In this document: piece by piece, positions 2,057 through 63,927 of the stretch
How positions within the stretch are numbered: the first letter of the stretch is position 1
Layout: each line of letters begins with the position of its first letter
Source: Stegostoma tigrinum
Taxonomy: Eukaryota
Direction: 5' to 3'
Assembly: GCF_030684315.1 (NCBI RefSeq)
Contig: NC_081391.1
Coordinates: forward strand, 13,493,342 to 13,557,341
DNA length: 64,000 nt
Program-made: the position numbers and the translations under genes
The notes under the pieces: model-generated
The model's input: only the letters and a program-made list of their open reading frames with translations
What the model was told of the DNA's origin: nothing
The model's database searches: none

Positions 2057-3350
2057 ATGTCCTACTTTGACCGGGATGATGTTGCCCTCCCCCATGTCTC
2101 CCAGTTCTTCCAAGATCAGTCCCAGGAGAAGCAGGAACATGCAGAGAAGCTGCTGAAATTCCAGAATCAGCGTGGAGGCAGAGTCCTCCTCCAGGATGTG
2201 AAGGCTGGTGTTGGGTTTTTGGGGTGGGGGGAGTTGGGTGGTAGAGAGTGGCTGCTCCTCAGGGATGGCACAGTGACTCAGTGTTTACCATGCATGCCTC
2301 AGTGCCAGGGATCCAAGTTTTGTTCTTGGTTCTAGGCTCCAGTGAACGACTGGAGTTTACTTGTTCTTGCCATGTCCACATTGGCTTCACGGTTCAATGA
2401 CGTGTGGGTTAGAAGGATTGCCATTTAAAATGCAGGGTTACAGGAATAAGGTGGGATTGTTCACAGAAGGGACTTGTAGCGACGAACGCAGTCGCCGTAC
2501 CTGCTGATCGGGGATGAATAAAACGATGTAGTGACCTTTGTTATTGTCACCATGTGTCAAATAGCCTGTTCCCATGCTGCAGAGATTCTGAAGCTTACCT
2601 GTCCTTCTCTCCATCCCCAGAAGCCAGAGAGGGCTGAGTGGGGTAACAGCCTGCAGGCAATGCAGGTTGCCCTGGATCTGGAGAAGAATGTGAACCAGAG
2701 TTTGCTGGATCTACACCAACTCGCCACAGCCCAGACTGACCCTCATGTGAGCTTTCCCACCTCCTCGTTCTGATCACTGCTAGGCCCTCAGGGCAACACC
2801 TCATTGGTCTTTTGTAGATTAAAATTCACTGGGATACTTTGATCACAATATCATATCTGAACAGTATGTTCATTTAATCAACATTAAAACAGCTCAGCAA
2901 TGAGCTGAAATGGGAATTTGGATTCAGTACCACGAGTGATGTTGGCCACTGAATTCACTTTCAGGGCCACTTGCAGTAGAATGATCATTGTCTGTCACAG
3001 TTCAGCTCGGCTCCACTTCACAAACAACAAGGTGCATCTGGAATGTTACTGTCCTCCCTGGCGCAACATCTAGATGTCAGTGGCTTTTCCAGCTGTCGAG
3101 AGCCAGTTATGGTGGGGTCTGTTTCGCAGTGGGAATTCTGAAAATTTCCTGGATCATGCAAATGTACCAAGTTGCCATCATTCCTCTGTTGCAGCTGTGT
3201 GACTTCCTGGAGACCCACTATTTGGATGAGGAGGTGGAGATCATCAAGCAACTTGGGGACTACATCACCAACCTGAAGCGCCTGGGAGCCCCTGAGAATG
3301 GGATGGGAGAGTACCTGTTTGACAGGCTCTCCCTGGAGGACAGCAGTTAG
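2057..3350 (+). CDS. Ferritin subunit (middle/light-chain-like), array copy 1, partial: exon 2 2057-2203, exon 3 2621-2746, exon 4 3195-3350; exon 1 lies upstream of the window
   Basis: Exons translate to [11 protein letters not shown]...LLQDVK / [11 protein letters not shown]...TDPH / [14 protein letters not shown]...[14 protein letters not shown], which are ferritin signature motifs. All have AG acceptors; the exon 2 donor is GC; AATAAA at 3478-3483. Confidence 0.9.
2261..2445 (+). mobile_element. Decayed tRNA-derived SINE (HE1-like), intron 2 of copy 1
   Basis: gggatggcacagtgactcagtg...gcctcagtgccaggga head; the same insertion is present in intron 2 of every copy. Confidence 0.55.
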
Positions 3351-4878: not shown

Positions 4879-5865
4879 CGAAAGGAACAAAAACAGGAGC
4901 AGGTGGTGAGGAAAGTAAAGCAAGCTTTTCCTTTATAAGATGAGTTCCCAGATCAGTCAGAACTGTCACCAGGATTGTGAAGCTGCTGTCAAAAGGCAGA
5001 TTAATGTGGAGCTCACTGCCTCCGATCTCAATCACTCTTTGGTGAGTGCTGTCCCTGTGGGGTTAAAACTTGATCTATGTAGTTGAAGTAAATGTTTTCT
5101 CTTGAATTTAATTAACTGGGCACTCTCTCTTTGTAGATTGAGTTTTGTAGTCCTTTCCTAAATATTAATTCAGGATAAGGGCAACGTTACTATACCAATG
5201 GGGTTTGATAATGATGTACTCTGAAGCTGGGTCCCAGTTGGGCTTCAGAGATATGTGGAGGATGAAGTGTCCCTGGAGATATTTGCCACTTTGGTGTTTG
5301 AATTGGCAGTAGATGTCATTCCCTCTAAGATTACCAAATGTTGGTAGGGTTACTTCAGAAAGGTATTATATTGATCATACTGTGGGACTAGAATCACCCA
5401 CTGGCTAGTTACCCTCTTTCTGACAGGTTTAAGTATCTGATTTTATATTTGCTTGCTTTTGTGGTGATACTTAAATATCAATTCTGATATTGACAATGAT
5501 AATTCCCTATTGCAGTCTGCTGTGGCTAATCTGAGCAAACCTACTTGAGGTTAGGCTGTGAGTGACTGGTATCTGACTTTTTAAAGTAGATCTCAGCTGA
5601 GGCCTGCTTGGCATTTTGCACTCCCATCATGAGATGGGTGTGGCCTATCCCTGAACCTGTAGAAAGTTGATCTGCTTTAGTGTGTGGCGTGTTGAAGCTT
5701 CTGCAAACCATGTTTGCCTCCTGCCCCCTCACCCACACCCTGCATCCCCTCTAGCTGCTGGAGTCTGAGATTCATGGTCCAGTCTCTATGCCATCCTGAT
5801 AGGGAACAAACTGTCCCCTTTAGCCAGGTGGCAGTGAACCTGTAACTTTCCAATGGGTAGAATGT

Positions 5866-6075
5866 TTCAGACAGTAGGAACAGCAGATGCTGGAGAATCT
5901 GAGATAACAAGGTGTAGAGCTGAATGAACACAGCAGGCCAAGCAGCATCAGAGGAGCAGGAAGGCTGATGTCTTGGGGCATGACCCTTCTGAAGGTGGGC
6001 CTAGGCCCAAAACAGCAGCCTTCCTGCTCCTCTGCTTGGCCTGATGTGTTCATCCAGCTCTACATCATCGTATCT
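5866..6075. mobile_element. Short inverted-repeat Penelope-terminus element in intron 1 of copy 2
   Basis: Imperfect inverted arms (gtagagctgaatgaacacagcaggccaagc / gcttggcctgatgtgttcatccagctctac), flanked by a 15-bp target duplication caa(t/g)gggtagaatgt at 5851-5865 and 6076-6090. Confidence 0.6.
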
Positions 6076-6090
6076 CAAGGGGTAGAATGT

Positions 6091-6290
6091 GTTTGGAAGT
6101 TGTGTTGAAGTAACCTTGGTGAGTGCTGCAGGGGACCTGGTAGATAATGGACCCTGAAAGGAGGTGGTGAATGCAGTCCCCATGAAGTGGGCTGCTCTGT
6201 CCTGGATGGTGTCTGCATCTTGAATGTTGTAGCTCCACCTCCACAGACACATGGAGAATCTTCGTCACTCTCAGCTTTTGTCTGTTAGAA
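6091..6290 (-). mobile_element. Ancient LINE (CR1/L2-like) ORF2 C-terminal fragment in intron 1; paralogues at ~12925-13130, ~30475-30690 and ~47840-48050
   Basis: Minus-strand translation [13 protein letters not shown] resembles the LDTIQDKAARLIGT-type tail of LINE ORF2. Shared by several copies, so it predates the expansion. Confidence 0.4.
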
Positions 6291-8687
6291 AGAAGATGCC
6301 TCATGACAGATGGATGAAGCCCGTATAAACTCCATTTGGGAGGTGGGTACAGCTTTCATTGGTGAGCCAGTTGACGGGTTTTAATTACTGACCAGGGTCC
6401 CATTTCCCTTGGGGAACACGTGTGCCAATTATAAAATCCTTCCTATTCTCTCCTGCCACAGCTTGTCCCTACCCCGTTAAACAGACAAGAAATTTTGTTT
6501 GACTGCTTCTACATGAAGACAATAACTTCCCACCAGGCTTCCTCGACAACAAAACTCTTAGCTCCTGTTTCAAATATCAGAAGAATAGCCCTTCATAAAC
6601 CTCAAGGCATTGGATTGTGAATATCTCGGTTCGGAAGTGAGTCACATATGGGTGGACAAACAACAGAACGGTGCCAGCTGGGATAAGCCAAACTTTGTTG
6701 TCCAGCTTTGTGTTAACTAGTGACGTTAGATCAGCCATTATCTGTAGATACAGGTCACATTGGTTCTCTCTCTCCAATATTTGACCTTCCCTCAGTTTGA
6801 TTCAATTTGTTTTGTTCATGTGACCCTTGTTCTCCCCCTTCTGGATGTGAGTGCACTAATTTTAGTGTGCTATAAACTATAACTGCAACAATCCAGAGGC
6901 AGTTACTGGGTAGGTTTTCCTTTGCACTATCTTGTTGTCGCTTTCTCTCATTCGCCTCTATTATATCTTGTAGTCATAAAATATACCGTACATTCAATCT
7001 CCCTGGTTTTGAGGCCACAGAAACCTTGCTTCCTCCTGGTTATATTGTTACAGCAGTGTCTAACATGTATTTCCATGCCAGCCCCAAAGGAGCAATAGTG
7101 TTACAGCTCCCCTACTCAAGTATAGCCTGCACTCCAGCTCCTGGTGCTTGTTTCAGCTGTTTGTTTGGCACTAATATTGTCCAATTCGAATGAAGGTTAG
7201 TGAGTGCAAACATGGCTGGATACAAGAAGAGCTATAATGCTGTGCCAGGCAGCCTGAGTAATTTACTGTTTGTTTTAAGCCAAACTTTTGCCAGTTTCCA
7301 ACAGGAAATTGGGATTGTTCTGTTTGATCCCAGTTGAAGGATCTGCTGGACAGCTGGACATCATTGGGTTCTCAAACATGTTCACATACCAGGCAGTTAG
7401 TTTGCTGCAGAAGGCTGAACTAGAATTTGGAGTCAGTGCTGTGTTTAATGGGCTTTAACATGTTATCTCCCTTCCAGATGTCCTACTTTGACCGGGATGA
7501 TGTGGCCCTCCCCCACTTCTCCAGGTTCTTCAAAGATCAGTCCCGGGAGAAGCAGGAACATGCAGAGAAGCTGCTGAAATTCCAGAATCAGCGTGGAGGC
7601 CGAGTCCTCCTCCAGGATGTGAAGGTTGGAGTTGGGTGGGAGGGTTGCAGCTGTGGAGGAGAGAATGGCAGCTCTTGTGGTGCTGCTTCCTGTTGGGATG
7701 TGAAAATCCTATTTTGGCATGGCTTCCCTGTTTGATTTCTTTTGAAGGCAGTTTCTAAACAAGCCCTATTGTCCACCATGTCTATGCTGCCCACAAACAT
7801 CAAACTAGACTAACACAATTTCCTGCACTTAGTCCACAGCCGACTATCTTCTGGCATGAAGAAGTTGTTGAGATTAGGCTTCAATGTTGCTGGAGTAACT
7901 GCCTCCACTGACCCCTCAGGTAATGCATCCCATACCTCTCCCACCCTCGACTGGGTGGGTGGGTCCTCCAATCTCCTCAAACCTGTGCCATCTGGTCTTC
8001 ATGTCTGCCATGGGGACTGTGTATTGTCCATCCTCCCTGATCTTCCACACTTCCATCAGATCACCATCCCAGGCTATCCAACCTCCCTCTCATCATTGTA
8101 TTTTTGTTGTCTTTTTTTGCTTCCATCTTGGGCCAACATCCTGATGACCCTCACCTGTACCCCCTGCAGTGCCACCTTGTCCCTCTGATGGTGGTTCTGG
8201 TCACCACACTACATTCCATCTTTGGTCTGGCCAATGCTGCCATGTTTGTGGCAAGACTCATCCTTTCTACTGAGCCCCAAATCATGGAGACCAGCATCAT
8301 GTCAGCCCCTTCCCCACTCTGTCTACCTTTGCTGAACCTTGAGGGATGGACTTGGGCATTTGTTGCTTGTCCCTTTTACTGTAAGCACATTGCTCCCTTC
8401 AATGAATTAAATAGTAGTGATGTCTGATCATCCTGCTCAGACATGGATGAAGCCACCAGCACAGGTGAGACATAGATGCCTGGCCTGCAAGGTGCAGATT
8501 GGTACTCTACCTCAAGAGCCCTTGAGACTAAGGTGTCAATGTCCTGATCTAAACGCCAAATGGGCACTGGTGCAAACAGTTGAACTTTGTGTGAAATAAA
8601 TCCCTAGCCCACAATGACTTCATGCTTCAGATCAAGGATAAATGGAGCAAAGTGAAGTCACTTCACAAGTAATGAATGTGGGTTTTA

Positions 8688-8830
8688 GGGGTGGCACAGT
8701 TGCTCAGTGCCAGGGACACAGGTTTAGCTCTGGCCTCTGATGACTGGTGCTTACATGTTCAGGTTTCTTCCTACAGTCCAAATATGGGCAGGCTGCGTGA
8801 AGTAGCCATGGGGGAATTGCAGTGCGAATG
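8688..8830 (+). mobile_element. Decayed HE1-like SINE, intron 2 of copy 2
   Basis: ggggtggcacagttgctcagtgccagggac...cctacagtccaaatatg. Confidence 0.5.
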
Positions 8831-11099
8831 GCTCAGGTAAATCTGAGATCTTCTTCAGAAGGTTGATTGCAGACTCAATGGGCTGAATGGCCTGCTCCCA
8901 TGCTGCGGCGAGTCTCTGATTCTGAAGCTTAACTGTTCCTGTTTCCATCCTCAGAAGCCTGAGAGGGATGAGTGGGGTAACAGTCTGCAGGCAATGCAGG
9001 TTGCCCTGGATGTGGAGAAGAATGTGAACCAGAGTTTGCTGGATCTACACCAACTCGCCACAGCCCAGACTGACCCTCATGCAAGCTTCACCTCTTCATT
9101 CTCATCACTGCCATGCCTCCTCAACTTCATTGGTTGGTCTTTGTGGAGTGGAAATTCACAGACGTAACTTTGTCCAGATGCTACATTGTACCTTTGTCAT
9201 CATAATTATGATGACAATGTTAAACTGCTCAACACCGAACTGAAATAGGAATTTGGATTACAGTCTGGTGGGAATGCTGATGTGATTTTTGGCTGTTGAA
9301 TTGGGGATTGTTGCACTATACAATACAACTTGGAGCTCTTTAAGAAGGTGAGATGAAGCAGCTGAAATGTCCTCACTGGCACAAATTCTCCACCTGTTAG
9401 CTAGATTTTCAGGGATGTCTAGAACTAGCTATGGCTCAGTCTTTTTCAGTAGGAATTGTGAAGTTGTCTTGGATAGTATAAATGTACCAAGTGTCATATT
9501 CCTCTGTTGCAGCTGTGTGACTTCCTGGAGACTCACTATTTGGATGAGGAGGTGGAGATCATCAAGCAACTCGGGGACTACATCACCAACCTGAAGCGCC
9601 TGGGAGCCCCTGAGAATGGGATGGGAGAGTACCTGTTTGACAGGCTCTCCCTGGAGGACAGCAGTTAGTGTGGCCTGGAGTACTGTCTGCTTGTTCTGAA
9701 TGTATTCCCCACTTCACCCTGGGCAACCCGTCTCCTTCCAGGGAGAAGAGGCTTGTAGCAAAGAATAATGGCTGTACCAGCTGAATGCAAATGAATAAAA
9801 TCATTTATGATCTTGCTTATTGTCCATCATTCAGAGCACTGGATATTTTGGGAAATGTCTTATTGAGCTTGAAGGCAGTTCTCTTTCTGTAATTTGGCTG
9901 ACCCAATTACTAATTGGACATGAAAACAACCTTTCAATGGATGTATTTACTCACTCTCGATCATTGCACAGTAACTAGACGGACTTCCTTTTTCTCATGA
10001 CACAGGAGACTCAAGACTTTCCCCTCTAAGTAGGATGAGGTTGGTGTTTCCCCAATTGTGGGGTGGAAAATCTTCCAGAGGTCAATTAGTACAGTTCTGG
10101 ATACTCTAGGTTCAATTGTCGATCAGAACTTGTCTTCCTTTTTGAGACAGGAAGTTCCCGTACCTGCTCGAAGGGATAAACCAGACGCCCATTCCATAGG
10201 ATGTGGGATATCTACGTTCAATGCCAGGTTTCCCTTCCTAAAGGCTCCCCTCAACCACCACGAGCAATGAGATTTGTCACTCGGACGATAATCTAATGGG
10301 AAGACAAGTCTGTGATTTGGAGGCTGGATCAGTTGACAAAATGCTGGCGGAAGTAGATATATCAAGTTCTGCTCTAAATCCAGTTGCAGGAACCAGCTAA
10401 GTTAGGAAAGACACAGGCTTGACTCATCTGGTGTAACCTCCCCAGTGAGGCCCTACCATGACCAGTATTTTCTATTCTCAGCATTGTTGTTTTTGGTCTC
10501 CTGTGAATGTAGCCTAGGGATCTTGGAGCCGGTTATGGATCAAAGCAGGACCAGCACTGGAGGCCTGTGACCTTCTCTTTCTCCCCATCTCTTGTTCCAG
10601 CCAACTGCAGTTGCACCCCCTACCCAGTTAAATCCCTCTTGACATTTCTGAGGGAGGGTGGCTGGACTCACTGTGGGTTGGCTTTTTCATTCCTCCATCT
10701 GAGTAACATAGCCCGCTCCATCTTTGCTCAAGAAGGAGTCAGTTCACACTGGGGCTGAGCTTTTCCCAAGAGCAATCCAAAATTGTCTTTAATGTGGCAT
10801 CCTCCCCTTCTTCCTCCTCCTTTCTCCACCACACCCCCCTTCTCTCCCAGCATTCACTCCAACAAGCTGCCCAGCCCAGATCTGGGAAAATTCAGCCCAA
10901 CCGTTCACAGAAGCCACTTACCAAGAGGTCAGCTGGAATTCCCCTGATCTGTATGGGATTCCAATGTCTGCTCTCGATGCTAACAACAGGAAGTTTTAGT
11001 TTTTGCTGTAGAATCCCTCAATGCGGGCAGATGCCATTCAGCTGATTAAATTTGTAATGACCTACTGAGCAACCTCCTGCTGAGGGACACCCTATTCCC

Positions 11100-11589: not shown

Positions 11590-11782
11590 TGCACAGGAGG
11601 TCAAAGGTCATTCAGCAATTCCATCATCCACCAGTTGTCAATTCTGGTTTCTGGATCCAATTCCCATCCTGCACTGATTGGACGTGGCAACTGATCAATT
11701 GATTAACAAGAGTGATTGGCCATCACTGATGATGTCATTTCCTGCTCAAAAAATGAGGGTCTTCTCCTGGAGTATAAATAGA
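11590..11782 (+). promoter_or_regulatory. Promoter of ferritin copy 3
   Basis: AGGTCAAAGGTCA 11598-11610; ATTGG at 11677 and 11715; ACGTGGCA at 11682; TGATGTCATTTCCTG 11730-11744; TATAAATA at 11773. The block is conserved ahead of 7 copies. Confidence 0.75.
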
Positions 11783-11875
11783 GCCCAATGGCATTGCTAT
11801 TTTAGGTGTAGCTGATTTTCTTTCTATATTTATAATTTGGTTTTGTTGGATAAGGAAAGTTGTTTCTATCACAAA

Positions 11876-14800
11876 ATGGCCTCCCAGATCAGTCAGAACT
11901 ATCACCAGGATTGTGAAGCTGCTGTCAACAAGCAGATTAATGTGGAGCTCACTGCCTCCTATCTCTATCAGTCTTTGGTGAGTGCTGTCCCTGTGGGGTT
12001 GGAGTTACTTCTGTTATGAAGTGAACTGTTTTTTTTTTAAAACAAACTAGATTAATACTCTTGTATAATAAAATGTGAGGCTGGATGAACACAGCAGGCC
12101 AAGCAGCATCTCAGGAGCACACGTTTAGCTTTTGTGCTCCTGAGATGCTGCTTGGCCTGCTGTGTTCATCCAGCCTCACATTTTATTATCTTGGAATTCT
12201 CCAGCATCTGCAGTTCCCATTATCTTTAACACTCTTGTAGACTTGTTTGTTTTTTTTTGTATCTCTCTTAGCTATTTCTTGATTCAGCGTAAATGTGGTG
12301 ACAATGGGATATGATACTGATATGCAGCAACTGAGGCCCCAGTTGTCTCAATGATATATGGAGGGTGAAGCATCTTGTGATTTATCTTACAATTCCTTTT
12401 AGGGCTGTGATTGCCTATAACTGGCTGTGGCTCTCCATAATTTTCTAAACTACTGTCAAGCTTTGATCCAGATAACCATTGGCTAACTACCTTTTTAAAT
12501 CTGCCTTGATGTATCTGCTTTAATTTTGTGCATGTAAATAAACAAACATACTGGTTTTGGTATTTACAATAAGGTGTTGTAGTAATTTGACAAATCAGAT
12601 TTTTTTAAGCTGAACTGAAGTCCTTGAGGTAAGACAAGCTGCTCCCTGCTTAAGTAGGTCTCCGATATTATTTTGGCTTTCTGTGCTCTATATCATGAAG
12701 TGGGTTTGATCCATCACTTCACAACCTATAGAAAGTTGACTTGTTATAGGTGCCTGCCCCCCCCGAACCCCCCCCGCCCCCAAAAGGGGGCTGCTGGAAC
12801 ATGCTGAGGCTATTGACCCAGAGGTGAAGAAATAAATGTTCTTCCTTTACCATTTAACCAGATAAAGAAACAAACTGGCTCCTCCCACCATGTGGTGGTG
12901 CCCCTGTGCCCTTCCAAGGAGTAGAATGTGTTCAGAAGGTGTTGAGGTCCCCTTGGTGAGTGCTGCAGGGGACCTGGTAGATAATGGACCCTGAAAGGAG
13001 GTGGTGAATGCAGTCCCCACGAAGCAGGCTGCTCTGTCCTGGATGGTGTCTGCTTCTTGCACGTTGCAGCTCCACTTTTCTCCAGACACATGGAGAATAT
13101 TCATCACTCTCTGGGCTTGTGCCTATTGGAAGGAAGTCCTATCTAGGGACATGAGGATAAAGTCCCTATAACTACCTTTTTGGGAGGTGGGAATAGCTTT
13201 AACTAGTGAACCAATTGTTGGGTTTTAGTCACTGACCACTGTCCCAACTCAATAGGGAATCTTGTGTGCTGATAATAAAATCCCCACTATTCTTCACCTT
13301 CTACAACTTAACTACCCAATTAAACCACTTTTTTAACTTTTAGTTTGTATTTGAGGATTAAACTAACTTCTCACCAGGATTCTACCAAAGAACAACTTCT
13401 TCTTTTGATGTCAATAGACTGTTCCTAATCAGCAGTAACTTGTTGGATTGTGAATCTCAGTTGAAAAGTGAGTGAAATGAGTGGGGAAAACAATAGTTTA
13501 GCCTCTTGGAATAAGCTAAATTGAGCTCTCCAGCTTTGAACAAGTCAACAATCTATAGGTCACACAGTCCTGCAGATACCATTAGGTCTCCTGAACATTT
13601 GATCTTGTTTCAGTTGTGAATTTTAATGCTTTGCTTTGCAAGCTTCTGGCAACCTGAGTGCATGGCATAAACAAATGTGATAAACTATTGCTGCAACAAG
13701 CCAAAGGCTGTCACTGGGCAGGCTCTCCTTTAGCACCAAGATTCTCCTAATCGCCCTCATTCTCCTGCATACTGCAAACAGCATCTCTTGTAGAGCTGCT
13801 TTATGTAAAAAAAAAAAACAGTACATCTGATCCAATTGGTTGCAGAAGACCTGTACCGACCAGCTATATTAATGTCCAGCATCTGCATGTTACTCGAGCA
13901 CCAGGGGAGACATGTAATGACTTGAAGTTGCCTGACCCTGTGCACATCCTGCATTCCAGCTCCTGGCACTTGTTTAAACCCTATTCAGTTACCACTTCCA
14001 TCCATTTCTGGAGGCTAGATGGTAGAAATGTGCTTTCAGCTTTTCTCTCCAGGCTGTGCCAGACACCCCCCCCCAAACAATTCAGCAGGGTTTACAAACC
14101 AAAACACTGAATTTGCATCTTACGTGGAAGAAGCTGGGGTTGTTTGGTTTCCTCCAATTAAAGGAGCTGCTGGCTAATTTTGCAACACCATTAGTGAACA
14201 TTGTAAGGTGTCAACAATTTTCAGCTGATTGAATCATTAGTTTGCTTTAGACTAAACCAGTCCTCCAGTTCTGAGCATGAGAAATGGGGTCAATGATGTG
14301 TTTAATGGGCTTTAACATGTTATCTCCCTTCTAGATGTCCTACTTTGACCGGGATGATGTTGCCCTCACCCATGTCTCCCGGTTCTTCAAAGATCAGTCC
14401 CAGGAGAAGCAGGAACATGCAGAGAAGCTGCTGAAATTCCAGAATCGGCGTGGAGGCAGAGTCCTCCTCCAGGATGTGAAGGTTGGAGTTTGGGAGGGGG
14501 GCATGGTGTGGTGTGCAGGAATGGTAGCTCATGGTGTTTTCTGTTAGTAGTGACAAGATTTTCATGTGGTAAAGGATGTGAAGGTTGGAGTTGGAGAAGG
14601 CAGGCAGTGGGGAGGAGATGTGAGAAATGGCTGCTTATGGTGTGGTTTCATGTCCTGAAAGAAAGTGAAAACTGTTTTGTTTGGCTCCCCTCCTTTTGAT
14701 GAAAAGGAAAGAAATCCTAGAAACAAGCCTCTTGGCTCCCCTCCACCTGCTGCTTTCCCCCCCCACCCACCCCCCCCCCACCACCATGCTGACCCGATAA

Positions 14801-16729
14801 ACACCAAACCACATTAATCCCATTTACTGCACTTGGTCTACAGCCCCCATGGCATTGGTAGTTGTCTAGAAGCTGCTTAAATATTGCAGCAGGAGATGCC
14901 TCCCCCACTGCCCCACCCCCCCCCCATATTATTTTTCCACTACCCTCTCGGCAAAGGATTCCTCTAACCTGCTTACTCCTCACATCAGTGCCCTCTGGTC
15001 TTAATGTCTCTTTCTCCCCACCCCCTCATAGCAGACACTCCCCATCTACTATCAAGACTCCACACTAATCAAATGCCATCACATAAACATCTCAACTGAC
15101 TTCACTCTGAGGATTGGAGTGAGAAATCTGATCTCTCCTTTTAATGGATTTTTCAGTCTTGGGGCAACATCCTGGTGACCCTTCCAGTGCCATTGTGGCT
15201 CTGGTCACCACACAGTATTCCACCTTTGCATGGCCAATGCTGCAAAGTTTGTGACAAGACTGGAGTCCCTGTACTGCGCCCCAAGAAATGGGGAAGGGCA
15301 TTGTGGAAGCCAACTTCCCCATCCTGTCTACACTTATGGATCCTTGAAATATCTCTAGTCTTGTTCTCTTGGTTCCTTTTATTGTCAACATATTGCTGTC
15401 CCTTCAATGAATTAAATAGTAGTGATGCTTTTGATCATTCAGGTCAGTCCTATATGAAGCCATAAGCACAAGTGGGACTTCAACCTGGGCCTATGCTCCA
15501 AACCTAGGGACAGTACCACTGCATTACGAGCCCTGGGATTAAGTTGTGAATATCCTCCTTGGGATGCCATCAGATGGGCACTGACAATTCTGTGCAAACA
15601 TAACTCTTATCCCCACTATGACCTGGTTGTGAATTGACTTTCCTTTCGGAAGAAGCAAATAGGGCTAGGTGAAAGCAATTCCTTAAATAACTGATCTGTT
15701 CTTCCTAAGGACTTCAGGGATGGCGGTGGTTAGCACAACTGCATCAGTGCTTGGGGCACAAGCTTAATTCTGGAGTTGACATGTTCACCGCATCTCTACA
15801 TAGGCTTCCTCCCACAGTCCAAAGATGTGCAGGGTAGGATAGGCCATGAAAAATGCAGGATTACATGGCTGGGGCTAGGACCAGGTTGGATGCTCTTCAG
15901 ATGGTCATGAGTGGGCAGAATGGCCTGATGCATGCTGCAGGGATGTTGTTTCTGAGGCTTACCTGTCCTTCTTTCCATCCTCAGAAGCCAGAGAGGGATG
16001 AGTGGGGTAACAGTCTGCAGGCGCTGCAGGTTGCCCTGGATCTGGAGAAGAATGTGAACCAGAGTTTGCTGGATCTACACCAACTCTCCACAGCCCAGAC
16101 TGACCCTCATGTAAGCTTCACCACCTCCTCATTCTCATCACTGCTAGACCCTCAGGGCAACACTTCATTGGTTGGTCTGTGTGGATTGGAAATTCACAGG
16201 TGTGCACTGATCACTTTGGGTCCATGCTGCTGAGCAGTTGTTACATGGTGATCAGTAATGAAGTGAAATGGGAGTTTGGAAGGCAATCCATTGGGAGTGA
16301 TGAAGTGATATTGGCCATTGAATTCCCATTCTCACTTGGGAGCATTACAGTGGAATGATCATTGTCCATCACCATCCAACTCAGCTACACTTCACAAACA
16401 GCAAGATGGAGCAGCTGACATCCTATTGTCTTCACTGGCACAGATTTTCCAGGTGTTAGCTAAATTTTCAGGGCTGTCTGGAACTAGTATGGTAAAGCCT
16501 GTTTTTCAGTGGGAATTCTGAAATTGTCTTGGATAGTGTTAATGCACCCAGTTGTCATATTCCTCTGTTGCAGCTGTGTGACTTCCTGGAGACTCACTAT
16601 TTGGATGAGGAGGTGGAGATCATCAAGCAACTTGGGGACAACATCACCAACCTGAAGCGCCTGGGAGCCCCTGAGAATGGGATGGGAGAGTACCTGTTTG
16701 ACAGGCTCTCCCTGGAGGACAGCAGTTAG
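11876..16729 (+). CDS. Ferritin subunit, copy 3, intact 176 aa: exons 11876-11977, 14335-14481, 15985-16110, 16574-16729
   Basis: [34 protein letters not shown] plus exons 2-4 in frame; GT-AG introns; TATA at 11773; AATAAA at 16857-16862. Confidence 0.93.
12065..12225. mobile_element. Short Penelope-terminus element with a perfect 57-bp inverted repeat, intron 1 of copy 3
   Basis: Arms 12065-12121 and 12133-12189 are exact reverse complements; flanking duplication ttaa(t/c)actcttgta at 12052-12065 and 12226-12239. Confidence 0.7.
15717..15860 (+). mobile_element. Decayed HE1-like SINE, intron 2 of copy 3
   Basis: gtggttagcac...cctcccacagtccaaagatgtgcagg. Confidence 0.55.
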
Positions 16730-19774: not shown

Positions 19775-19980
19775 TTTGCACTTGTGCGGGAGGTCAAAGG
19801 TCATTTCAGCAATTTCATCATCAACCAGTTGTCAATTCTGATTGGTTTTTTGACCCGATTCCCATCCTGCACTGATTGGATGTGGCAGCTGATCAATTGA
19901 TTAACAAGAGTGTTTGGCCATCACTGATGATCTCATTTCCTGCTTCATAAAATGAGTGTTGGCTCCTGGAGTATAAATAG
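19775..19980 (+). promoter_or_regulatory. Promoter of ferritin copy 4
   Basis: Same conserved block; DR1 at 19791-19803; TATAAATA at 19972. Confidence 0.75.
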
Positions 19981-20065
19981 AGTCCCAGGGCAGGGATGTT
20001 TACTGTTGCTTTTAGCTGTGTCATTTTTCTGGGGTGGAAAATAAAGCAAGTGTTTCCTTTATAAG

Positions 20066-23000
20066 ATGGCCTCCCAGATCAGTCAGAACTATCACCAGGA
20101 TTGTGAAGCTGCTGTCAACAAGCAGATTAATGTGGAGCTCACTGCCTCCTATCTCTATCAGTCTTTGGTGAGTGGTGTCTCTGTTGGGTGAAACATACTT
20201 CTGTTCTGTTGAAGTGAACTCTTCCCCTTGGATGTAATTAAGTTGTCTATCTTATAGACTGAGTTTTGTGGCTCCTCCCTCTTTCTCAATGCAGGATGAG
20301 TGTGATGTTACTGTAACAATAGTTTGGTGTCTAATGTTACTCTAACTTGGGTCCCAGTTGGTTGTCAGTGAGATGTGGAGGGTGGAGTGTTCTTGTAGTT
20401 ACTTGCCTGTCCCATGATGGTGCTGTGACTGGTGGTAATTATAGCTTCCTGTGGCTGTTTGAAACTTGAGGGAACAAAATTAAAAATGAATTGGGACTCA
20501 CCATTGTGGGAATGGAAGCACCATCAGCTAGTCACTGCTTTTCTTGTATCCTTGTTTCTATTTGAATCTTGTGGGGATCTGAAGTAAACCTGCCAATTGT
20601 GACTGAGAATCTTGGTTTCCTATTGCAATCAGCTTAGAATAGGCTTGTTCTAGCCCTACAGTGATGGGCCGAGAGGTGGCAAATGGAGTTTAATGCAGAC
20701 AAGTGTGAGCTGATGCACTTTGGTAGGAGTAACCGGAAGGCAAAGTACAGGGCTAATGGTAAGATTCTTGGTAGTGTAGATGAGCAGAGAGATCTGTGTC
20801 GATAGGTAGACACGGATTGTTGAAAGTTGCCACCCAGGTTGACAGGGCAATTAAGGCAGTGTTTTGTCTTTTATTAAGAGGATTGAGTTCTGGAACCAAG
20901 AGGTTATGGTGAAGCTATCCAAAAACTCTGGTGCATACAGTTCTGGTCACTGCATTATAAGGATGTGAAGCTTTGGAAAGGGTGTAGAGGAGATCTGCTA
21001 GGATGTTTCCTGGTATGGAAGGAACATCTTATGAGGAAAGGCTGAGGGACTTGAGGCTCTCTTCATTAGAGAGAAGAAGGTTGAGAGGTGACTTAATTGA
21101 AACATATAAAATAATCAGAGGGCTAGTTCGGGTGGATAGGGAGAGCCTTTTACCTAGATGGTGATGGTGAGCATGAGGTGGGGTAGCTTTAAATTGAGGG
21201 CTGATAAATATAGGACAGATGTCAGAGGTAGTTTCTTTACTCAGTAAGGGAATGCAATGCTTTGCCTGTGACAGTAGTAGATTTGCCCACTTTAGGTACA
21301 CTTACGTCATCATTGGATAAGCAAATGGGCGTACATGGAATAGTGTAGGTTAGATGGGCTTGAGATCAGTATGACAAGTCGGCACAACATCAAGGGCTGA
21401 AGGGCCTGCACTTGGCTGTTATGTTCTATGCTCAGATCAAACTGGGTGAGGTTGTGACTCTTATCTGATTAAGCAGATCTCCATTTGAAATCTACCTTGC
21501 TTTTCTTCATACTCATGAGGTGGGTGTGGGCTGTCTGTATGTCAAGTGTTGGAGCTTTTCAAAGGCACAGCACTGCCATGGGGCTGAGAATGTACTGACC
21601 CAGTGACTTTGGTTAAAAAGTTTATGCCCATTGTATTTGGCCTGATTGTAAACTAACTGGACCCTCTTTCCCCAGGTGGGGTGCTTGTGCCCTTCCAAGG
21701 GGTAGAAGGTGTTTACGTAACCTTGGTGTTTGTTGCAGGGTGCTCTCTGGGCTTGTCCCTGTCAGCAGGAAGTCCCCCTCCTGATGAGGATCAAGCCCCT
21801 GTCAGCCCCAGTTTGGGAGGGGGAACAGCTTTCATTGAGCCAGCAGTTGGGTTTTAATCACTGACCCATTGTCCCAACACACCTTGTAAGCATGTGCCAG
21901 GAATGAAATCCTTACTATTCTACATCTTCTAACTGCACATTTAAATCGCAAAGATAAATTGTGCTTGTGTTTGCATTTGAGAATTGAAGCAACTTTTTTC
22001 AGCAGGATTTGTAAGAATGTGCTTGTTACTGGCTGCTTCCAATAGCAGACCTGCTAAACCTCAATACATTGAATTGTGAACATCCTGGTTTAGAAATCTA
22101 CAGGACTTTGCCTGTTGGATTAAGTCAACAGTGGTTTTTCCAGGTTAATGAGGGATCTTGTCTGGAGAGTAGTTGATCTGCAGATCACTGTCATATTTGT
22201 CATGTGATCAGTTTGTTTTGTCAGTCTTTGTTTCATGTGTAATGGTACAAGTTGCTAGCAGTCTGAGTCAGTGCAGCTGTTTTAGATGCAACAATAAACT
22301 GTTGCAGTAACAACCCAAAGGCTGTCCTTAGGCAGGCTTTCCTTGGCAGATTCTTGGAGCTAACATCCTTCATTCATCTCCTCATGCCCCCCCAGCCACC
22401 CCAATACTGCAGTTCTTGTCAAACTAATAGATACAGTGCATCCAATTGCATTGATCCTGACTCAGCAGAAAATGTGCTTCTTCCAAGCTGTTAATTGCAG
22501 TGTCTAGGATCTGTTTTCTGGTCTTTGCCAAAGCAGCAATACAGTGCCCTGCAGCTGTTCTATTGGTGTACATCCTGCACTCCAGCCCCTGGCATTTCTT
22601 GAAACCCGATTCAATCAAAGATTTATCCCATTTCTGGTGGAGGTTAATCAGTAAAAACATCAATTCACACTTGTTCTCACCAAATGCTGTGCCAGACCCT
22701 CCTGGGCAATTTGCCTGGAGTTTCAAACCAAAATAAAACACATGGTATTTACAACTTACTGGAGGAAGCTGGGATTGTTTTGATTTTTCCAATTCAACAG
22801 CAACTGCTCAAAACTGGGTTCTGAATTGTTAATGCATCAGGTACTTAACAGCTTATTGTCAGTTTGATTTTGAGAATGCTCAAGTAGCCCTGTAGTTCTG
22901 AACTGAAATTGGCCCATGACTTGTTAATGGACTTTACCTTGTTCTCCCTTCCAGATGTCCTACTTTGACCGGGACGATGTTGCCCTTCCCCATTTTTCCC

Positions 23001-25224
23001 AGTTCTTCAAACATCAGTCTCAGGAGAAGCGGGAACATGCAGAGAAGCTGCTGAAATTCCAGAATCAGCGTGGAGGCGGAGTCTTCCTCCAGGATGTGAA
23101 GGTTGGAGTTGGGTGGGGTGGGGAATGGGATGGTAATGGCTGCTCTTGTGGTGTGGTTTCAAGTCAGTGACAAGGTTTTCATTTGAGTCAAAACTTTGTT
23201 CAGCCTGTTTGATCTCCTTTTTGAAGCCAGTGTGGAAAGAAGCCCTTTGGCCCACCATGTCTATGCTGACCCCACAAACACGAACAACATTAATCCCACT
23301 TACCTGCCCTTGGTCCACAGGCCACTGTCCTGGCACTAAGTATTTGTCCAGCTGGACCCTAAACTGATCTGGAGTAGCTGTCTCCACCACCATCCAACCC
23401 TTTATGTGGTTCATCTCATATTTCAAACAGCCCCTCAGAGGGGTGGGGGTGGGGTGAAGTTTCCTCCAATCCCCTCTAACCTGCTTACTCCTCAAACCTG
23501 GTTTCTCTCCTGTCTTGGTGTCTGCCATGGGAAGACATTCCATCGACTGGCCACTCTCTATTCTTCAATTACATCAGGTCACTCCCTCAGCTGTTCCTGC
23601 TCCACAGAAAATCCCAGCCTATCTAACCTCCAATCAATGGATCTTGGGCAACAGCCTGGGGAACCTCACCAGCTTCCCCCTGCAGTGCCATCCTGTCCAG
23701 GTGACTGGTGAGGCCAAAGAGGAATAATGTGGTGACCAGAAAAACAAACTGAGGAGACTGGTCCCCTTCCTGTTCCACCACACCCAACTAATAGAGGTTG
23801 CTTGCCCTCTGTCACTGTTACACCCTGTTGACCTTGTCTGAACTTTGAGGGATCTATGGTTGTGGGCCTTTCTTAACTGTTAGCAGCACAACACACTTTG
23901 CAAACACCTCGCTGTCCCTTTGATGAATTAAATAGCCGTGATGTTTCTGATCATCCTGCTCAGGCATGTATGAAGCCACCAGCACAAGTGGTACTTGAAC
24001 CTTGGCCTTGTCAGCCAGAGACAGGGGCACTACCACTGTACCATGACAGCATTTAGGATTCACTTGTGAATATCCTCGCAATTCCATCAGATGGACCCTG
24101 ATGCAAATCTTGTCATTATCCCCCACAATGACCTGTTATTCACCTTCCTCCTTCAGATCAAGGACCGACAGGCAAGGTGAAAGCAATTCTGAAGGAACTG
24201 TTCTTCAGCTGTGCTCCAGGGCTGCCTCAGGGGCTAGCAGTGTTCTCAGTGCTAGGGACACAGGTCTGGATCTGGCCTCTGGTGAGGGACTGGTGTTTAC
24301 ATGTCCACCCCATGTCTGCGTTGGTGTCCTCAGAGTATAAGAGGATTGGCCATCTGAAATGCAGGGTTACAGGAATAGGGTGGGAGAAGGACGAGTTGGG
24401 ATCCTCTTCAGAGCAGTTACAGACTGATCCACGTTGTAGAGATTCTGAAGCTTAACAGTCCTTCTTTCCCTCCTCCAGAAGCCAGAGAGGGATGAGTGGG
24501 GTAACAGCCTGCAGGCAATGCAGGTTGCCCTGGATCTGGAGAAGAATGTGAACCAGAGTTTGCTGGATCTACACCAAGTTGCCACTGCCCAGGCTGACCC
24601 TCATGTAAGCTTCACCTCCTCATTGACTTCACTGCTAGGCCCTCAGGGCAACACCTTCATTGGTTGGTCTTTTGTGGATTAGAAATTCAGTTAGACTTTG
24701 TTTTTGTGCAGATGACATGGATCACTTCAGATCCATAGTGATTACAAAATCATTGCTGAGCAGTTGACTCCAAGTATGTATTTTAACTTGTAAACCTGTG
24801 GGGAGGACTGAGGGGATATTGGCGACTGAATTCTCATTCAGGGCCACTGCAGTGGAATGACTTTTATCCATCACAAGTCAACTCTGCTCCAGTAAATAAA
24901 CAGCAAGATGAAGCAGCTAAAAAGCAGTTGTCCTCTTTGCACAATTTCTCCAGGCGTTGGCTCTAGTCATCCCTGACAATCTCCCTCCATATGCATGTTT
25001 TTCAGTGGGGATTCTGAAGTTGTCTTGGATAGTGTTGATGTACCAAGTGTCATATTCCTCTGTTGCAGCTGTGTGACTTCCTGGAGACCCACTATTTGGA
25101 TGAGGAGGTGGAGATCATCAAGCAACTTGGGGACTACATCACCAACCTGAAGCGCCTGGGAGCCCCTGAGAATGGGATGGGAGAGTACCTGTTTGACAGG
25201 CTCTCCCTGGAGGACAGCAGTTAG
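20066..25224 (+). CDS. Ferritin subunit, copy 4, intact 176 aa: exons 20066-20167, 22955-23101, 24479-24604, 25069-25224
   Basis: Four in-frame ferritin exons; GT-AG introns; TATA at 19972; AATAAA at 25351-25356. Confidence 0.93.
20656..21430 (+). mobile_element. 5'-truncated CR1 LINE (end of ORF2 + 3' UTR), intron 1 of copy 4
   Basis: Decayed [10 protein letters not shown]...QFWS...LRGDLIE motifs; ends in an atgttctatg microsatellite tail. Confidence 0.85.
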
Positions 25225-29389: not shown

Positions 29390-29596
29390 AATGTGCACTT
29401 GTACAGGAGGTCAAAGGTCATTCAGCAATTCCATCATCGACCAGTTGTCAACTGTGTTTCGTTTCTGGATCCAGTTCCCATCCTGCACTGATTGGACGTG
29501 GCAGCTGATCAACTGATCATCAAGAGTGATTGGCCATCACTGATGATGTCATTTCCTGCTTCATAAAAAGAGGGTCTGCCCCTGGGGTATAAATAG
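29390..29596 (+). promoter_or_regulatory. Promoter of ferritin copy 5
   Basis: Same conserved block; DR1 at 29408-29420; TATAAATA at 29588. Confidence 0.75.
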
Positions 29597-29680
29597 AGTC
29601 CCACGGGAATGATGTTGATTGTTCTTCCTAATTTTGTTATTTTGGTGGTGAGGAGAATAAAAGAAATTTATTGTCACAAG

Positions 29681-32600
29681 ATGGCCTCCCAGATCAGTCA
29701 GAACTATCACCAGGATTGTGAAGCTGCTGTCAACAAGCAGATTAATGTGGAGCTCACTGCCTCCTATCTCTATCAGTCTTTGGTGAGTGCTGTCTCTCGG
29801 GGTTAAACATATAAATCTGTTCTGTTGAAGTAAATTCTTTGCCTGGCCTCTAGTGAAGCTGACAATCTAGTAGATTGAGGTTTTGTGGCTCCTACCTAAA
29901 TATCAGTTCAGGATAGAGGTGGTGTTACTGTCACGATGGTGTAGGATACTGATGTATGTTAACTCAGGTCCCAGTTGGCCTTCAGTGGTATCTGGAGGGT
30001 AAAAGCCTCTTGCTTTTTTTCTTTCTGACACAAGTTTCCTGACTTCATTTGCCTGATCTCTGTGGTGGTCCTAAACAAACATGCTGATTTTTTTTAACAC
30101 TGACAATAACAATAACTTCCCTGTTGCAGTGGCCCTTGTTAGTCTGAACAAACCTGAGGCTAGTCTGTGACTGGTATCTATTTTATGTAGATCTCCTTCA
30201 TTGAGGCTGACTTGGCTTTACTTGCATTTATTCAAGAGGTGGGTGTGGCCTATCCCGTCCCCACTGAGAGTTGATCTGCTGTGTGTGAGAAATGTTGGAT
30301 CCCCTCTTTGCCCCCTCTCCAACCCACCCCACCCCACACTGGGGCTGCGGGAATGTGCTGAGGCTATTAGCCCAGTGACATTGAAGAAATGGAGGTTGTT
30401 CCCAGATCATTTAGGTTGACCTAAAACAAAATGTCCCCTCTATCCCGGTGGTGATGTGACTGTGCCCTTCCAAGGAGTAGAATGTGCTTGGAAGGTATGT
30501 GTTGAAGTAACCTTGGTGAGTGCTGCAGGGGACCTGGTAGGTAATGGACCGTGAAAGGAGGTGGTGAATGCAGTCCCCATGAAGTGGGCTGCCCTGTCCT
30601 GGATGGTGTCTGCTTCTTGCATGTTGTAGCTTCCCTTCTACAGACACACGGGGAATATTCATCTCTCTCTGGGCTTGTGCCTATTGGAAGGAAGTTGTCT
30701 TGTAATGAGGACTAAGTCCCTATAAGCCTCACTTGGGAGGTGGGACCGCTTTATTGGTGAGCCAGTTGTTGGGGTTTAATCACTGTGTCCCAACTCTATT
30801 GGCACATGTTTCCCAAGGATAAAATCCCGACTATCTTCTGCCACAACTTGTAACTACCCACTGAAACCACAGATATTTGCTTGCCTGACTGGTTTTTGGA
30901 TTTGAGGATTAAAGTAACTTTACAGGAGTCCTTCCCCAGAATGTAATTCTTAGCTGATGCTTCCAATAGCGAGCATTAGCTCTTAAACCCTAACATCGAA
31001 TTGTGAACATGACAGTTGAGATGAGTCACATGGGCTGAAAACCTACAGGATTTTTTGGCTGTTTGGGCAAAGTCAGGGCAAGTGTTTTTCCAGGTTACTG
31101 TTTTCACTAGTGACGTTATGTACAGGCCACTAATATTTGACATTTGATCATTTGTTTTGCAATTTGTTTCAGTCATGTGACTTGGTGCAAGCTTTTGACA
31201 GCCTGAGTTTGCACTATTTAGGCAGAGCAATAACCCACTGCTGCAACGATCCAAAGGCTGTTACTGGGCAGGCTTTCCTCGGCATTATCTTAGTGCCAAA
31301 CTCCATACTGGAGACAGCACACCTTTGTAGAGTTCATGTGTACACTTACATCCCAATCTCATTGATCCTGGGTTTGCAGAAAAGATGCTCCCTACTAGTC
31401 GTTGACTATAGCAGGGTTTCAACATCTTTTTTCCAGGTTTCCCCAAAGGCAAAACGTAGTGCCTTGCGTCTTGTAGTTGAGAACTGGAATGGGGAGTGAG
31501 CCAGTCATGTCTGATGTAATTTTAACTTGATCTTCCAGATGTCCTACTTTGACCGGGACGATGTTGCCCTCGCCCATTTCTCCCGGTTCTTCAAAGATCA
31601 GTCCCAGGAGAAGCGGGAACATGTAGAAAAGCTGCTGAAATTCCAGAATCAGCGTGGAGGCCGAGTCCTCCTCCAGGATGTGAAGGTTGGGGTTGGGTGG
31701 TGGGGGAGTGCAGGGGGGAATGGCTGCTCTTGCGGTGTCATCTCCAGTGACAAGATTTTCCAGATCCTGAACGAGTGTGAGATGTTCTTTTGCTTGGCTT
31801 CCCTGTTTGCTCTCATCCATCTCCAGTGTTTCAGCATTTATGCAAGCCCTCTGGTCCACCAGGCCTATGCTGATGCAGCAAAGACCGAACTGTACTCACC
31901 CTGTTCTTGGTCCAGGCCCTACTATACCCTAGTGTTTAGCACTCGCCCAGCTAGTCCTTTTAAACAGTGCTGCAGTAGCCGTTTCCAGCACTTTGTTCTT
32001 CCGTTCCCCAACACACCCACCAAATTTCCTCCAATCCCCTCTATCCTGCTTCCTCAAACCTGTGCCCTCTGGTCTTAGTGTCTGCCATGGGGAAGACATT
32101 TTCCCCATCTACTGTCCAGACTTCCTTGTCTTCCATCAAACAACCACCTCAGCCTCACCTGCTCAAAGGAAAACCCCCAGCCCATCCAATCTCTCTCCTC
32201 ATTGGTTTTCTGTCTTGGGGAAACAACCTTGGGACCCTCACCAGCACCCCCTGCAGTACCATCCTGTCCTTCTGACCAGTGAGGCCAACGATAGAATGCA
32301 GCAGAGACCGGAAGAAGAATTTTCATAAAATGTGTTCAAAGGACTTGTCCCTGTGCTGTTCCTCACAACCCTGCCCCAAACTAACACATGTTACTTGGCC
32401 TATGTCCCCTTTCACACACAGTTTGCCTTGTGTGAGCATTGAGGGATCGATGATCCTGTGTTTATTGTAAGCACATTACTGCCCCCCACAATGAATTCAA
32501 GTAATGATGGTTCTGACCATGCTGCTCGGGCATGTATGAGGCCACAAGCACAAGTGAGACTTGAATCTCAGCCTTGTCAACCGAAGCTTGGGACACGACC

Positions 32601-33839
32601 GCTACTTTCCCCACAGCCCTTGGGATTCACTCCTGAATATCCTTTTTAAGACTCCAGCAGATGGACACTGGTGCAAATGACTAATCTGGTACATATTTAT
32701 TCCCTGTGGTACAAGGATATGTTCCTGAACTTCCGGCTTCAGGTCAAGGATAAATGGGGCAAGGTGAAAGGAGTCACCAAGTAGCTAATGTTTTCTTTAT
32801 CTGGACTTCAGGGATGGCACAGTGGCTCAGTGGTTGGCACTGTTGACTCAGTGCCAGGGGCACCAGTTTGGTTCTGGCCTGTGACGAGAATTTAAACGTT
32901 ATCCCAAAGCATGGCTTCCCCACACAGTAGAAAAGAGGATTGGCAACTTGAAATGCAGGTTACACGAACAGGGTGGGAATGGGACCAGATGGGATGCTCT
33001 TCAGCAGTTATGGTCTCAATGGGGTGAATGGCCAGCTCCCATGCTGCAGGGATTCTGTTTCTGAAGCTTACCTGTCCTTCTCTCCATCCCCAGAAGCCAG
33101 AGAGGGATGAGTGGGGTAACAGTCTGCAGGCAATGCAGGTTGCCCTGGATCTGGAAAAGAATGTGAACCAGAGTTTGCTGGATCTACACCAACTCGCCAC
33201 AGCACAGACTGACCCTCATGTAAGCTTCACCTCCTCATTCACATCACTGCTAGACTCTCAGGGTAACGTTTCATTGGTTGGTCTGTGTGGATTGGAAATT
33301 CACTGATGTAACACTTTCCATCCATTACTTTCCTGAACTATTGTAACATTGATCACTTGGGATCATACTGATTACAATGAGGTATAAGGGGAATTTGATC
33401 TATAATCTAGTGGAAGTGCTGAAATGACGTTGGCCACTGAGTTCTTCATTAGTATCATTGCAGTGGAATGATCATTGTCCATCACAATCCAACTCAGCTC
33501 CATTTCACAAACAGCAAGATGGAGCAGCTGACATGTTGTCCTCACTGGCACAAATTCTCCAGGTGTTAGCTCGCTTTTCAGGGCTGTCCAGAGCTAGTCA
33601 TGGCTAAGTCTGTCTTGCAGTGGGAATTCTGAAATTGTCTTGGATAGTGTTAATGTACCAAGTGTCATATTCCTCTGTTGCAGCTGTGTGACTTCCTGGA
33701 GACCCACTATTTGGATGAGGAGGTGAGGATCATCAAGCAACTCGGGGACTACATCACCAACATGAAGCGCCTGGGAACCCCTGAGAATGGGATGGGAGAG
33801 TACCTGTTTGACAGGCTCTCCCTGGAGGACAGCAGTTAG
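29681..33839 (+). CDS. Ferritin subunit, copy 5, intact 176 aa: exons 29681-29782, 31539-31685, 33094-33219, 33684-33839
   Basis: Four in-frame ferritin exons (exon 4 variant DEEVRIIK...[10 protein letters not shown]); GT-AG introns; TATA at 29588; AATAAA at 33967-33972. Confidence 0.93.
32810..32970 (+). mobile_element. Decayed HE1-like SINE, intron 2 of copy 5
   Basis: gggatggcacagtggctcagtggttggcactg (A box). Confidence 0.55.
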
Positions 33840-38174: not shown

Positions 38175-38380
38175 TTTGCACTTGTGCAGGAGGTCAAAGC
38201 TCATTCAGCAATTCCATCATCGACCAGGTGTCAATTCTGATCGGTTTCTGGATCCAATTCCCATCCTGCACTGATTGGACGTGGCAGCTGATCAATTGAT
38301 GAACGAGAGTGATTGACCATCACTGATGATGTCATTTCCTGCTCAAGAAAATAAAGGGCTGCTGCTCGAGTTAAAAAAAT
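38175..38380 (+). promoter_or_regulatory. Degenerating promoter of pseudogene copy 6
   Basis: Same block with mutated DR1 (aggtcaaagctca), second CCAAT lost (gattgacc) and TATA lost. Confidence 0.6.
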
Positions 38381-38475
38381 GTCCCAAGAGAGTGTGATGT
38401 TTATGGTGTAGTTGGTTATCTTTCCAAGTTTGTTATTTGATTTTGGAGGAAAAGGAAAGCTATTTTCTTAATAAA

Positions 38476-47011: not shown

Positions 47012-47215
47012 TTTGCACTTGTGCAGGAGGTCAAAGGTCATTCAGCAATTCCATCATCGACCAGTTGTCAATTCTGATCGTTTTCTGGATCCAATTCCCA
47101 TCCTGCACTGATTGGACGTGGCAGCTGATCAATTGATGAACAAGAGTGATTGGCCATCACTGATGATGTCATTTCCTGCTTCATAAAATGAGAGTCTGCT
47201 CCTGGAGTATAAGTA
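47012..47215 (+). promoter_or_regulatory. Promoter of pseudogene copy 7, largely intact
   Basis: DR1 at 47028-47040, both ATTGG boxes, TGATGTCATTTCCTG and TATAAGTA at 47208. Confidence 0.65.
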
Positions 47216-47312
47216 ATGCCCCAAGGAGGTTATGTTTTTTTGTCTAGTTGATGTTGGTTCTAAATTGGTCACTTATGTTGTGAATAGAGTAAAACAAACT
47301 CCTCATCACAAG

Positions 47313-54821: not shown

Positions 54822-55027
54822 TTTGCACTTGTTCAGGAGGTCAAAGATCATTTCAGCAATTTCATCATCAACCACTCATCAATTCTGATTGGTTTTTTGA
54901 CCCGATTCCCATCCTGCACTGATTGGATGTGGCAGCTGATCAATTGATTAACAAGAGTGTTTGGCCATCACTGATGATCTCATTTCCTGCTTCATAAAAT
55001 GAGTGTTGGCTCCTGGAGTATAAATAG
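54822..55027 (+). promoter_or_regulatory. Promoter of ferritin copy 8
   Basis: Same block; DR1 variant aggtcaaagatca at 54838; TATAAATA at 55019. Confidence 0.72.
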
Positions 55028-55112
55028 AGTCCCAGGGCAGGGATGTTTATTGTTGTTCTTAACTTTGTCATTTTTGTGGTGTGGAAACTAAAGCAAGCTT
55101 TTCCTTTATATG

Positions 55113-63843: not shown

Positions 63844-63927
63844 AGTCCCACGGGAATGATGTTGATTGTTCTTCCTAATTTTGTTATTTTGGTGGTGAGG
63901 AGAATAAAAGAAATTTATTGTCACAAG

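Follow-up and report, generated by a model that had tools for sequence, protein, structure and literature searches.

A zebra shark ferritin gene array with no detected 5' iron-responsive element and a lysine-substituted ferroxidase site

Introduction

FTHL17 is an intronless derivative of ferritin H. In FTHL17 and mouse Fthl17, Glu62 is replaced by Lys, most other ferroxidase residues are kept and ferroxidase activity is absent; for FTHL17 this single substitution is stated to be sufficient to abolish the activity, and the mouse family is described as multi-copy (PMC7760355). The same source describes iron-responsive elements (IREs) in FTH1 and FTL mRNAs and places FTMT, a vertebrate ferritin, outside IRE/IRP regulation (PMC7760355). 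An IRE/IRP system has been reported in lamprey (PMC13025143), and an oyster IRE is described whose end lies 57–59 nt ahead of the ATG (PMC13026281). Among invertebrates, sponge HdF2 and other atypical ferritins combine IRE loss with active-site substitutions including E62K; nearly all of those treated in the source are without an IRE, one carries E62K, and loss of the IRE is described there as accompanying loss of iron-binding residues (PMC8395497). In hadal snailfish, fthl27 has been amplified to 14 mostly tandem copies, in a report whose main text is silent on IREs and ferroxidase activity (PMC10746142). Ferritins without an IRE (FTMT, the atypical invertebrate forms) and a ferritin with Lys62 (FTHL17) are thus already known, and IRE absence alone has precedents and is unsurprising. 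In the literature searched on shark, cartilaginous fish and elasmobranch ferritins, which takes in a minority of subscription journals, we found no account of shark ferritin arrays or of their IREs.

Here we analyze a 64-kb stretch of Stegostoma tigrinum DNA (the window), which consists of nine tandem, same-strand, four-exon ferritin genes spaced mostly 7–10 kb apart. The genes share Glu62Lys with FTHL17, which belongs to a different lineage, is X-linked and is expressed in germ cells; the window genes are split into four exons and driven from a TATA promoter. FTMT is unlike them in being intronless and single-copy, with a targeting peptide and all ferroxidase residues, and the atypical invertebrate ferritins are highly diverged minor ferritins, whereas the shark clade is 62–65% identical to macaque H and tandem-amplified. 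The snailfish amplification, although likewise tandem and in a fish, is much smaller and lineage-restricted (PMC10746142). Tetrapod FTL resembles the window genes in having both Lys62 and Glu141, as seen in reptile L chains, and window exon 4 scores slightly better with frog M and mammalian L than with H. FTL is described as having a 5' IRE (PMC7760355), unlike the window copies, which also differ from it in retaining Glu27 and His65 and in having no Glu60.

Results

Exon protein searches returned Stegostoma and Chiloscyllium proteins as the top single-domain matches, and relatives of the window ferritins carry PF00210. Copies 3, 4, 5 and 8 have four coding exons and encode 176 aa, within the 173–183 aa of a vertebrate cytosolic ferritin gene. 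Among the seven complete copies these four are intact, copies 6 and 7 are broken, and copy 2 is probably decaying (Table 1). No copy in the window is identical to any database protein compared. The window contains no non-ferritin gene flanking the array. The four intact copies, to judge from a pN/pS of 0.17–0.40 among them, are under purifying selection. Mean identity between copies is 99% in exon 1, 92% in the 3' UTR, 89% in the promoter, 68–70% in introns and 63% in the predicted leader. Synonymous divergence between copies is low (7–12%) and that of introns and leaders high (30–37%), which suggests that gene conversion has been homogenizing the exons, the 3' UTR and the promoter while skipping the leader between them.

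Table 1. Positions of ferritin gene copies and selected elements in the 64-kb window
Feature	Position	Strand	Remarks
Copy 1	2057..3350	+	exons 2-4 only; 5' end outside window; GC donor after exon 2
Copy 2	4940..9668	+	frame open; dispersed repeat in place of promoter; no Tyr34; exon 3 followed by GC donor
Perfect DR1 AGGTCAAAGGTCA, nuclear-receptor type	11598..11610	+	one per promoter, 7 promoters
Inverted CCAAT box (ATTGG)	11677..11681	+	7/7 promoters
ATCAATTGAT	11694..11703	+	conserved promoter motif
Second inverted CCAAT box	11715..11719	+	4/7 promoters
TGATGTCATTTCCTG	11730..11744	+	7/7 promoters, G/C allowed at one position
Copy 3 TATA box	11773..11780	+	
Copy 3 predicted U-rich 5' leader, 73 nt	11803..11875	+	no IRE; predicted start TATA+30
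Copy 3 exon 1, coding part	11876..11977	+	34 aa; GT donor
Copy 3 exon 2	14335..14481	+	49 aa; Lys62 codon 14407-14409 (human H numbering)
Copy 3 exon 3	15985..16110	+	42 aa
Copy 3 exon 4	16574..16729	+	51 aa plus stop; Glu141 codon 16610-16612; AATAAA at 16857
12-nt exact match to mammalian ferritin H IRE 5' arm	19936..19947	+	36 nt upstream of TATA
Copy 4, TATA to stop	19972..25224	+	intact
Copy 5, TATA to stop	29588..33839	+	intact
Copy 6, pseudogene	38371..42868 (end approximate)	+	decayed TATA; exon 2 frameshift
Copy 7, pseudogene	47208..51455	+	exons 2 and 3 contain stops; start of exon 4 affected by deletion
Copy 8	55019..60293	+	intact; 175/176 residues identical to Stegostoma tigrinum XP_059496503.1
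Copy 9	63835..64000	+	TATA, leader, exon 1 start; window end truncates rest

The array could instead be a largely silent or non-functional product of repeat-driven duplication, its missing IREs being simple decay; copies 6 and 7 are broken, copy 2 has lost its promoter, dispersed repeats are common to the units, and a two-unit block has been duplicated at about 90% identity. We regard this as improbable given the pN/pS of the intact copies, the conservation of promoter and 3' UTR above that of introns, and the retention of the Lys62 clade (described below) in ten shark genera among the members listed.

The duplicated higher-order block joins copies 4–5 (18382–29753) with copies 8–9 (53433–64000) at 88–92% identity. 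GC rather than GT donors occur at 2204 (copy 1, exon 2), 41724 (copy 6, exon 2) and 9081 (copy 2, exon 3); these three copies are broken, decaying or incomplete. The spacers hold recurrent ORF fragments (28116–29078, 36682–37380, 45161–45832 and 62447–63382), which we take to be similar to the reverse transcriptase ends of CR1/L2-type LINEs, and these LINE-like fragments may have acted as seeds of unequal crossing-over. Long palindromic inserts in intron 1 (5949–6034, 12100–12154 and 47711–47784) gave weak miRNA-model scores and are probably small inverted-repeat transposons. Rfam matches to miRNAs and snoRNAs in the window scored far under the gathering score and were discarded.

The TATA-to-ATG interval was compared among copies. 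In copy 3 it spans 11773–11878, from the first T of TATAAATA through the G of the ATG. The TATA-to-ATG distance is 103 nt in copy 3, 94 in copies 4 and 8, 93 in copies 5 and 9, and 105 in copy 7, which agrees with the 93–105 nt given for these six copies in a first-pass annotation of this DNA; in copy 6, whose TATA has decayed to TTAAAAAA, the corresponding position also lies 105 nt before the ATG. That annotation had described the interval as T-rich, diverged between subtypes and free of a CAGTG loop, and all three descriptions were borne out: T content is 36–43% across copies 3–9, mean identity of the predicted leader falls well short of that of promoter and exon 1 (minimum 51%, against 50% for random 70-mers), and CAGWG occurs in none of the seven intervals of copies 3–9.

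An IRE_I was defined by a CAGWGH apical loop in the 5' leader, a bulged C six bases ahead with a 5-bp upper stem, and a covariance-model score of at least 34 bits. Three of six candidate loci, those with 5' flank, served as positive controls: Rfam IRE_I scored 53–56 bits in all three of these vertebrate ferritin cDNAs, and the pattern scan recovered the same three. Rfam found no IRE_I in the window at the gathering score or at E<=10, and none in the 251 nt around copy 4. On the + strand of the 64-kb window the pattern scan met 202 CAGWGN loops, 35 of them with C at -6, and 0/35 had at least four upper-stem pairs. The scan took in the intergenic spacers, which extend 1.5–4.4 kb to the previous poly(A) signal (measured for seven copies). 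Four metagenome loci (L001–L004) had no IRE by Rfam or pattern scan and were of no use as controls.

Absence of the hexamer from 100 nt is expected by chance, as just 6–17% of shuffles contain it; 13/100 shuffled windows were likewise without an IRE hairpin; and the two strands together hold 73 instances of C-N5-CAGWGH, with 73.7 expected. What makes the absence informative is solely that an IRE is the normal and ancestral state of ferritin mRNAs. A further locus, L005, has an IRE-shaped hairpin at 843–878 (bulged C, 5/5 pairs, CAGTGA loop) between its TATA and the ferritin ATG, on which Rfam IRE_I is silent even at E<=10 and which the pattern scan detects. Rfam can thus overlook divergent IREs, and the pattern scan is the stricter negative. 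Since this hairpin fits within a 119-nt interval, and the oyster IRE likewise lies near the ATG, the short TATA-to-ATG distance is no argument for IRE absence, and its use as evidence in the first-pass annotation was mistaken.

Three weak candidates were rejected. A CAGTGC at 4850 in copy 2 has only 2/5 stem pairs; a CCAGGA variant loop at ATG+29, found in 8/8 copies with 4/5 pairs, lies in coding sequence and answers the loosest pattern only; and a variant-loop match resembling it in the copy 4 3' UTR was likewise dismissed.

The mRNAs might carry an IRE after all, either because a start site or a leader exon common to the copies lies beyond the window or because the element has diverged past recognition. 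An AG stands just before the ATG in 5/8 copies (always AAG), following a pyrimidine run in copies 2 and 4, and Rfam did overlook the divergent L005 hairpin. The AG is missing from the intact copies 3 and 8, every copy is served by a conserved TATA promoter of its own, the leaders have no common structure, and the + strand of the 64 kb holds no IRE-shaped hairpin; we therefore consider a hidden IRE very unlikely. Specifically, an upstream leader exon, named in the first-pass annotation as grounds for rejecting its claim, is unlikely because the spacers lie inside the scanned window and the AG occurs in only 5/8 copies. The earlier statement that no copy has a 5' IRE holds for eight of the nine, exon 1 of copy 1 being outside the window; among the eight, copy 2 has no promoter and copy 7 is a pseudogene. 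Within these bounds the sequences make the loss of IRE/IRP control well supported.

No substitute element emerged from the predicted leader. Folding energies of the six distinct leaders differ little from shuffles (z -1.2 to +0.95), and consensus folding of the leaders yielded just -1.0 kcal/mol and no stable shared structure; a conserved substitute hairpin was rejected. The leader looks unconstrained, as would be expected after IRE loss. The T-rich interval might alternatively be coding sequence that extends the N-terminus with hydrophobic residues, so that the ferritin would be secreted or membrane-bound: copies 5, 7 and 9 have an in-frame ATG at TATA+21 to +24 from which a hydrophobic stretch is read, and such an extension is present on one annotated zebra shark protein (P0227). 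This ATG, however, precedes the expected start site and is out of frame or soon stopped in the intact copies 3, 4 and 8; the hydrophobic residues follow from T-rich composition, and of all transcribed parts this one is conserved least. We give this reading hardly any credence.

Upstream of the TATA box the picture is the reverse, 190 nt being 89% identical among copies 3–9. Matches to DR1 with at most one mismatch number seven against 0.14 expected; as the copies are paralogues, the seven count as one event. We tentatively assign AGGTCAAAGGTCA to HNF4/PPAR/RXR/COUP-TF, and take ATCAATTGAT to be an Onecut/HNF-like motif and TGATGTCATTTCCTG an ETS/AP-1-like composite. The two CCAAT boxes stand at -88 and -126 relative to the predicted start. 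Conservation of the promoter while the leader diverged fits transcriptional control. Metagenome contigs yielded 0 matches to the promoter motif, and viral contigs yielded no ferritin.

The promoter also contains a possible remnant of an IRE. The 12 nt that are identical to the 5' arm of the mammalian H IRE are present in five of seven promoters (copies 4, 5, 7, 8 and 9) with the identity shortened to 9 nt in copies 3 (11738) and 6. A new TATA box may have arisen downstream of the ancestral IRE, so that the start jumped past it and the 5' arm was kept as a transcription-factor site; this would add a history to our preferred explanation, not replace it. None of 1180 background tiles and none of 300 dinucleotide shuffles reaches 12 nt against the mammalian H IRE arm, and the match lies 129–141 nt before the ATG, compared with 139 nt in the mammalian controls. 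Against this, the arm was spotted post hoc and its copies are one event; the match to a fish H IRE is only 9 nt, a length reached by 27/1180 tiles (about 2%) and 6/300 shuffles; and the L005 hairpin does not match the promoter arm. Gapped alignment stands out in copy 4 only (2–5/300, with 24–174/300 in copies 3, 5 and 7), neither loop nor 3' arm accompanies the match, its first seven bases are accounted for by an ETS-type core, and the arm-to-ATG distance in the fish control is 220 nt. We consider such a promoter shift unlikely.

The coding sequence differs from H chains at the catalytic center, a feature that the first-pass annotation had overlooked. Lys replaces ferroxidase Glu62 in all eight copies with exon 2, and Glu replaces Gln141 in all seven translated copies of exon 4. 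The four intact copies thus depart from the H/M-type set (E27, Y34, E61, E62, H65, E107, Q141) by K62 and E141 and keep the other five residues; Lys62 is the L-type mark of an inactivated ferroxidase site. Among the cavity residues, for which we assume the nucleation glutamate positions used in L-type comparison, E61, E64 and E67 are kept and position 57 is Asp or His. Position 60 is Gln or Arg in the window copies as against Glu in reptile L chains, which leaves a nucleation role of the L type in doubt.

Residue 62 was then compared in ten shark clusters, with at most 15 members per cluster. Lys62 was found in 57/57 members listed in six clusters and Glu62 in 53/53 listed in the other four. 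Among listed members, the Lys62 genera are Stegostoma, Rhincodon, Chiloscyllium, Hemiscyllium, Mustelus, Scyliorhinus, Heterodontus, Cetorhinus, Carcharodon and Heptranchias. Within this clade Glu141 occurs, among listed members, only in carpet sharks, which makes it convergent with the Glu141 of L chains. Four ray ferritins examined all have Glu62.

Shark ferritins at 90% identity form clusters of 180, 138, 127, 76, 69, 45 and 43 proteins across species, and this very large array mostly sits on a single contig of 20–100 Mb in each species. It comprises a Lys62 clade and a Glu62 clade, together with a conserved M-type gene present as a single copy. In the zebra shark the Lys62 genes, the Glu62 array and the single-copy M-type gene are probably on one chromosome. 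Vertebrate ferritin cDNAs, some of them shark-like, contaminate bacterial assemblies (L006–L008; P0032, P0264, P0267 and P0273), where they are annotated as Aeromonas or Salmonella ferritin.

A tree was built from 51 hand-picked proteins of 321 together with four window copies; its L rows were reptile only, with none from mammals, amphibians, lungfish, coelacanth or chimaera. The Lys62 clade has support of 100/96. It is sister to reptile L in two trees, at 96/76 with all columns and 78/79 with seven active-site columns removed; an alternative tree uniting both shark arrays as one clade was not rejected (p-AU 0.296). P0220, which bears the label panda, clusters with the reptile L chains. On these sequences, tree support for orthology between the shark Lys62 clade and tetrapod ferritin L is weak; we see the question as close to even and lean slightly against it. 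The compound proposal that the clade is orthologous to tetrapod L and that a start-site jump past the IRE left the 5' arm stranded upstream of the new TATA as a transcription-factor site is quite unlikely.

Discussion

We consider it likely that the window genes belong to a shark ferritin paralogue clade without an IRE and without a ferroxidase site, encoding ferroxidase-null, L-like subunits whose output is set through promoter and copy number. Transcription would start about 30 nt after the TATA box and give an unstructured leader of 63–75 nt, to which IRP1/2 could not bind, so that translation would be independent of iron. Output would then depend on promoter activity (DR1, CCAAT, ETS/AP-1-like and TATA elements) and on copy number. 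The first-pass proposal that these genes are uncoupled from iron-dependent translation and controlled transcriptionally stands to this extent: no IRE, no substitute structure and a conserved promoter are what the DNA itself offers in its favor.

By analogy with FTHL17 and L chains, the subunit could not oxidize iron, and it would join ferroxidase-competent subunits from the same chromosome in 24-mers, serving there for structure or storage. The Glu62-to-Lys change is relevant to the question of why loss of the iron switch was possible. The DR1 and Onecut-like motifs may point to expression in gut or liver; this is the least certain step of the mechanism, and we put it forward tentatively. Counter-evidence comes from the array, where the seven complete copies include two clear pseudogenes and one copy in decay, a pattern that fits birth-and-death turnover as well as selection on dosage.

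If the Lys62 clade were indeed orthologous to tetrapod L, the light chain would predate the split between sharks and bony fish, and the vertebrate H/L division of labor would have to be redated. On the explanation we favor, a branch of shark ferritins would have dropped both the iron switch and the iron-oxidizing site, yet it has been kept in ten genera among the members listed. Such a branch would be a natural experiment on the reasons for which ferritin subunits escape control by iron, and on the use of subunits that are ferroxidase-null.
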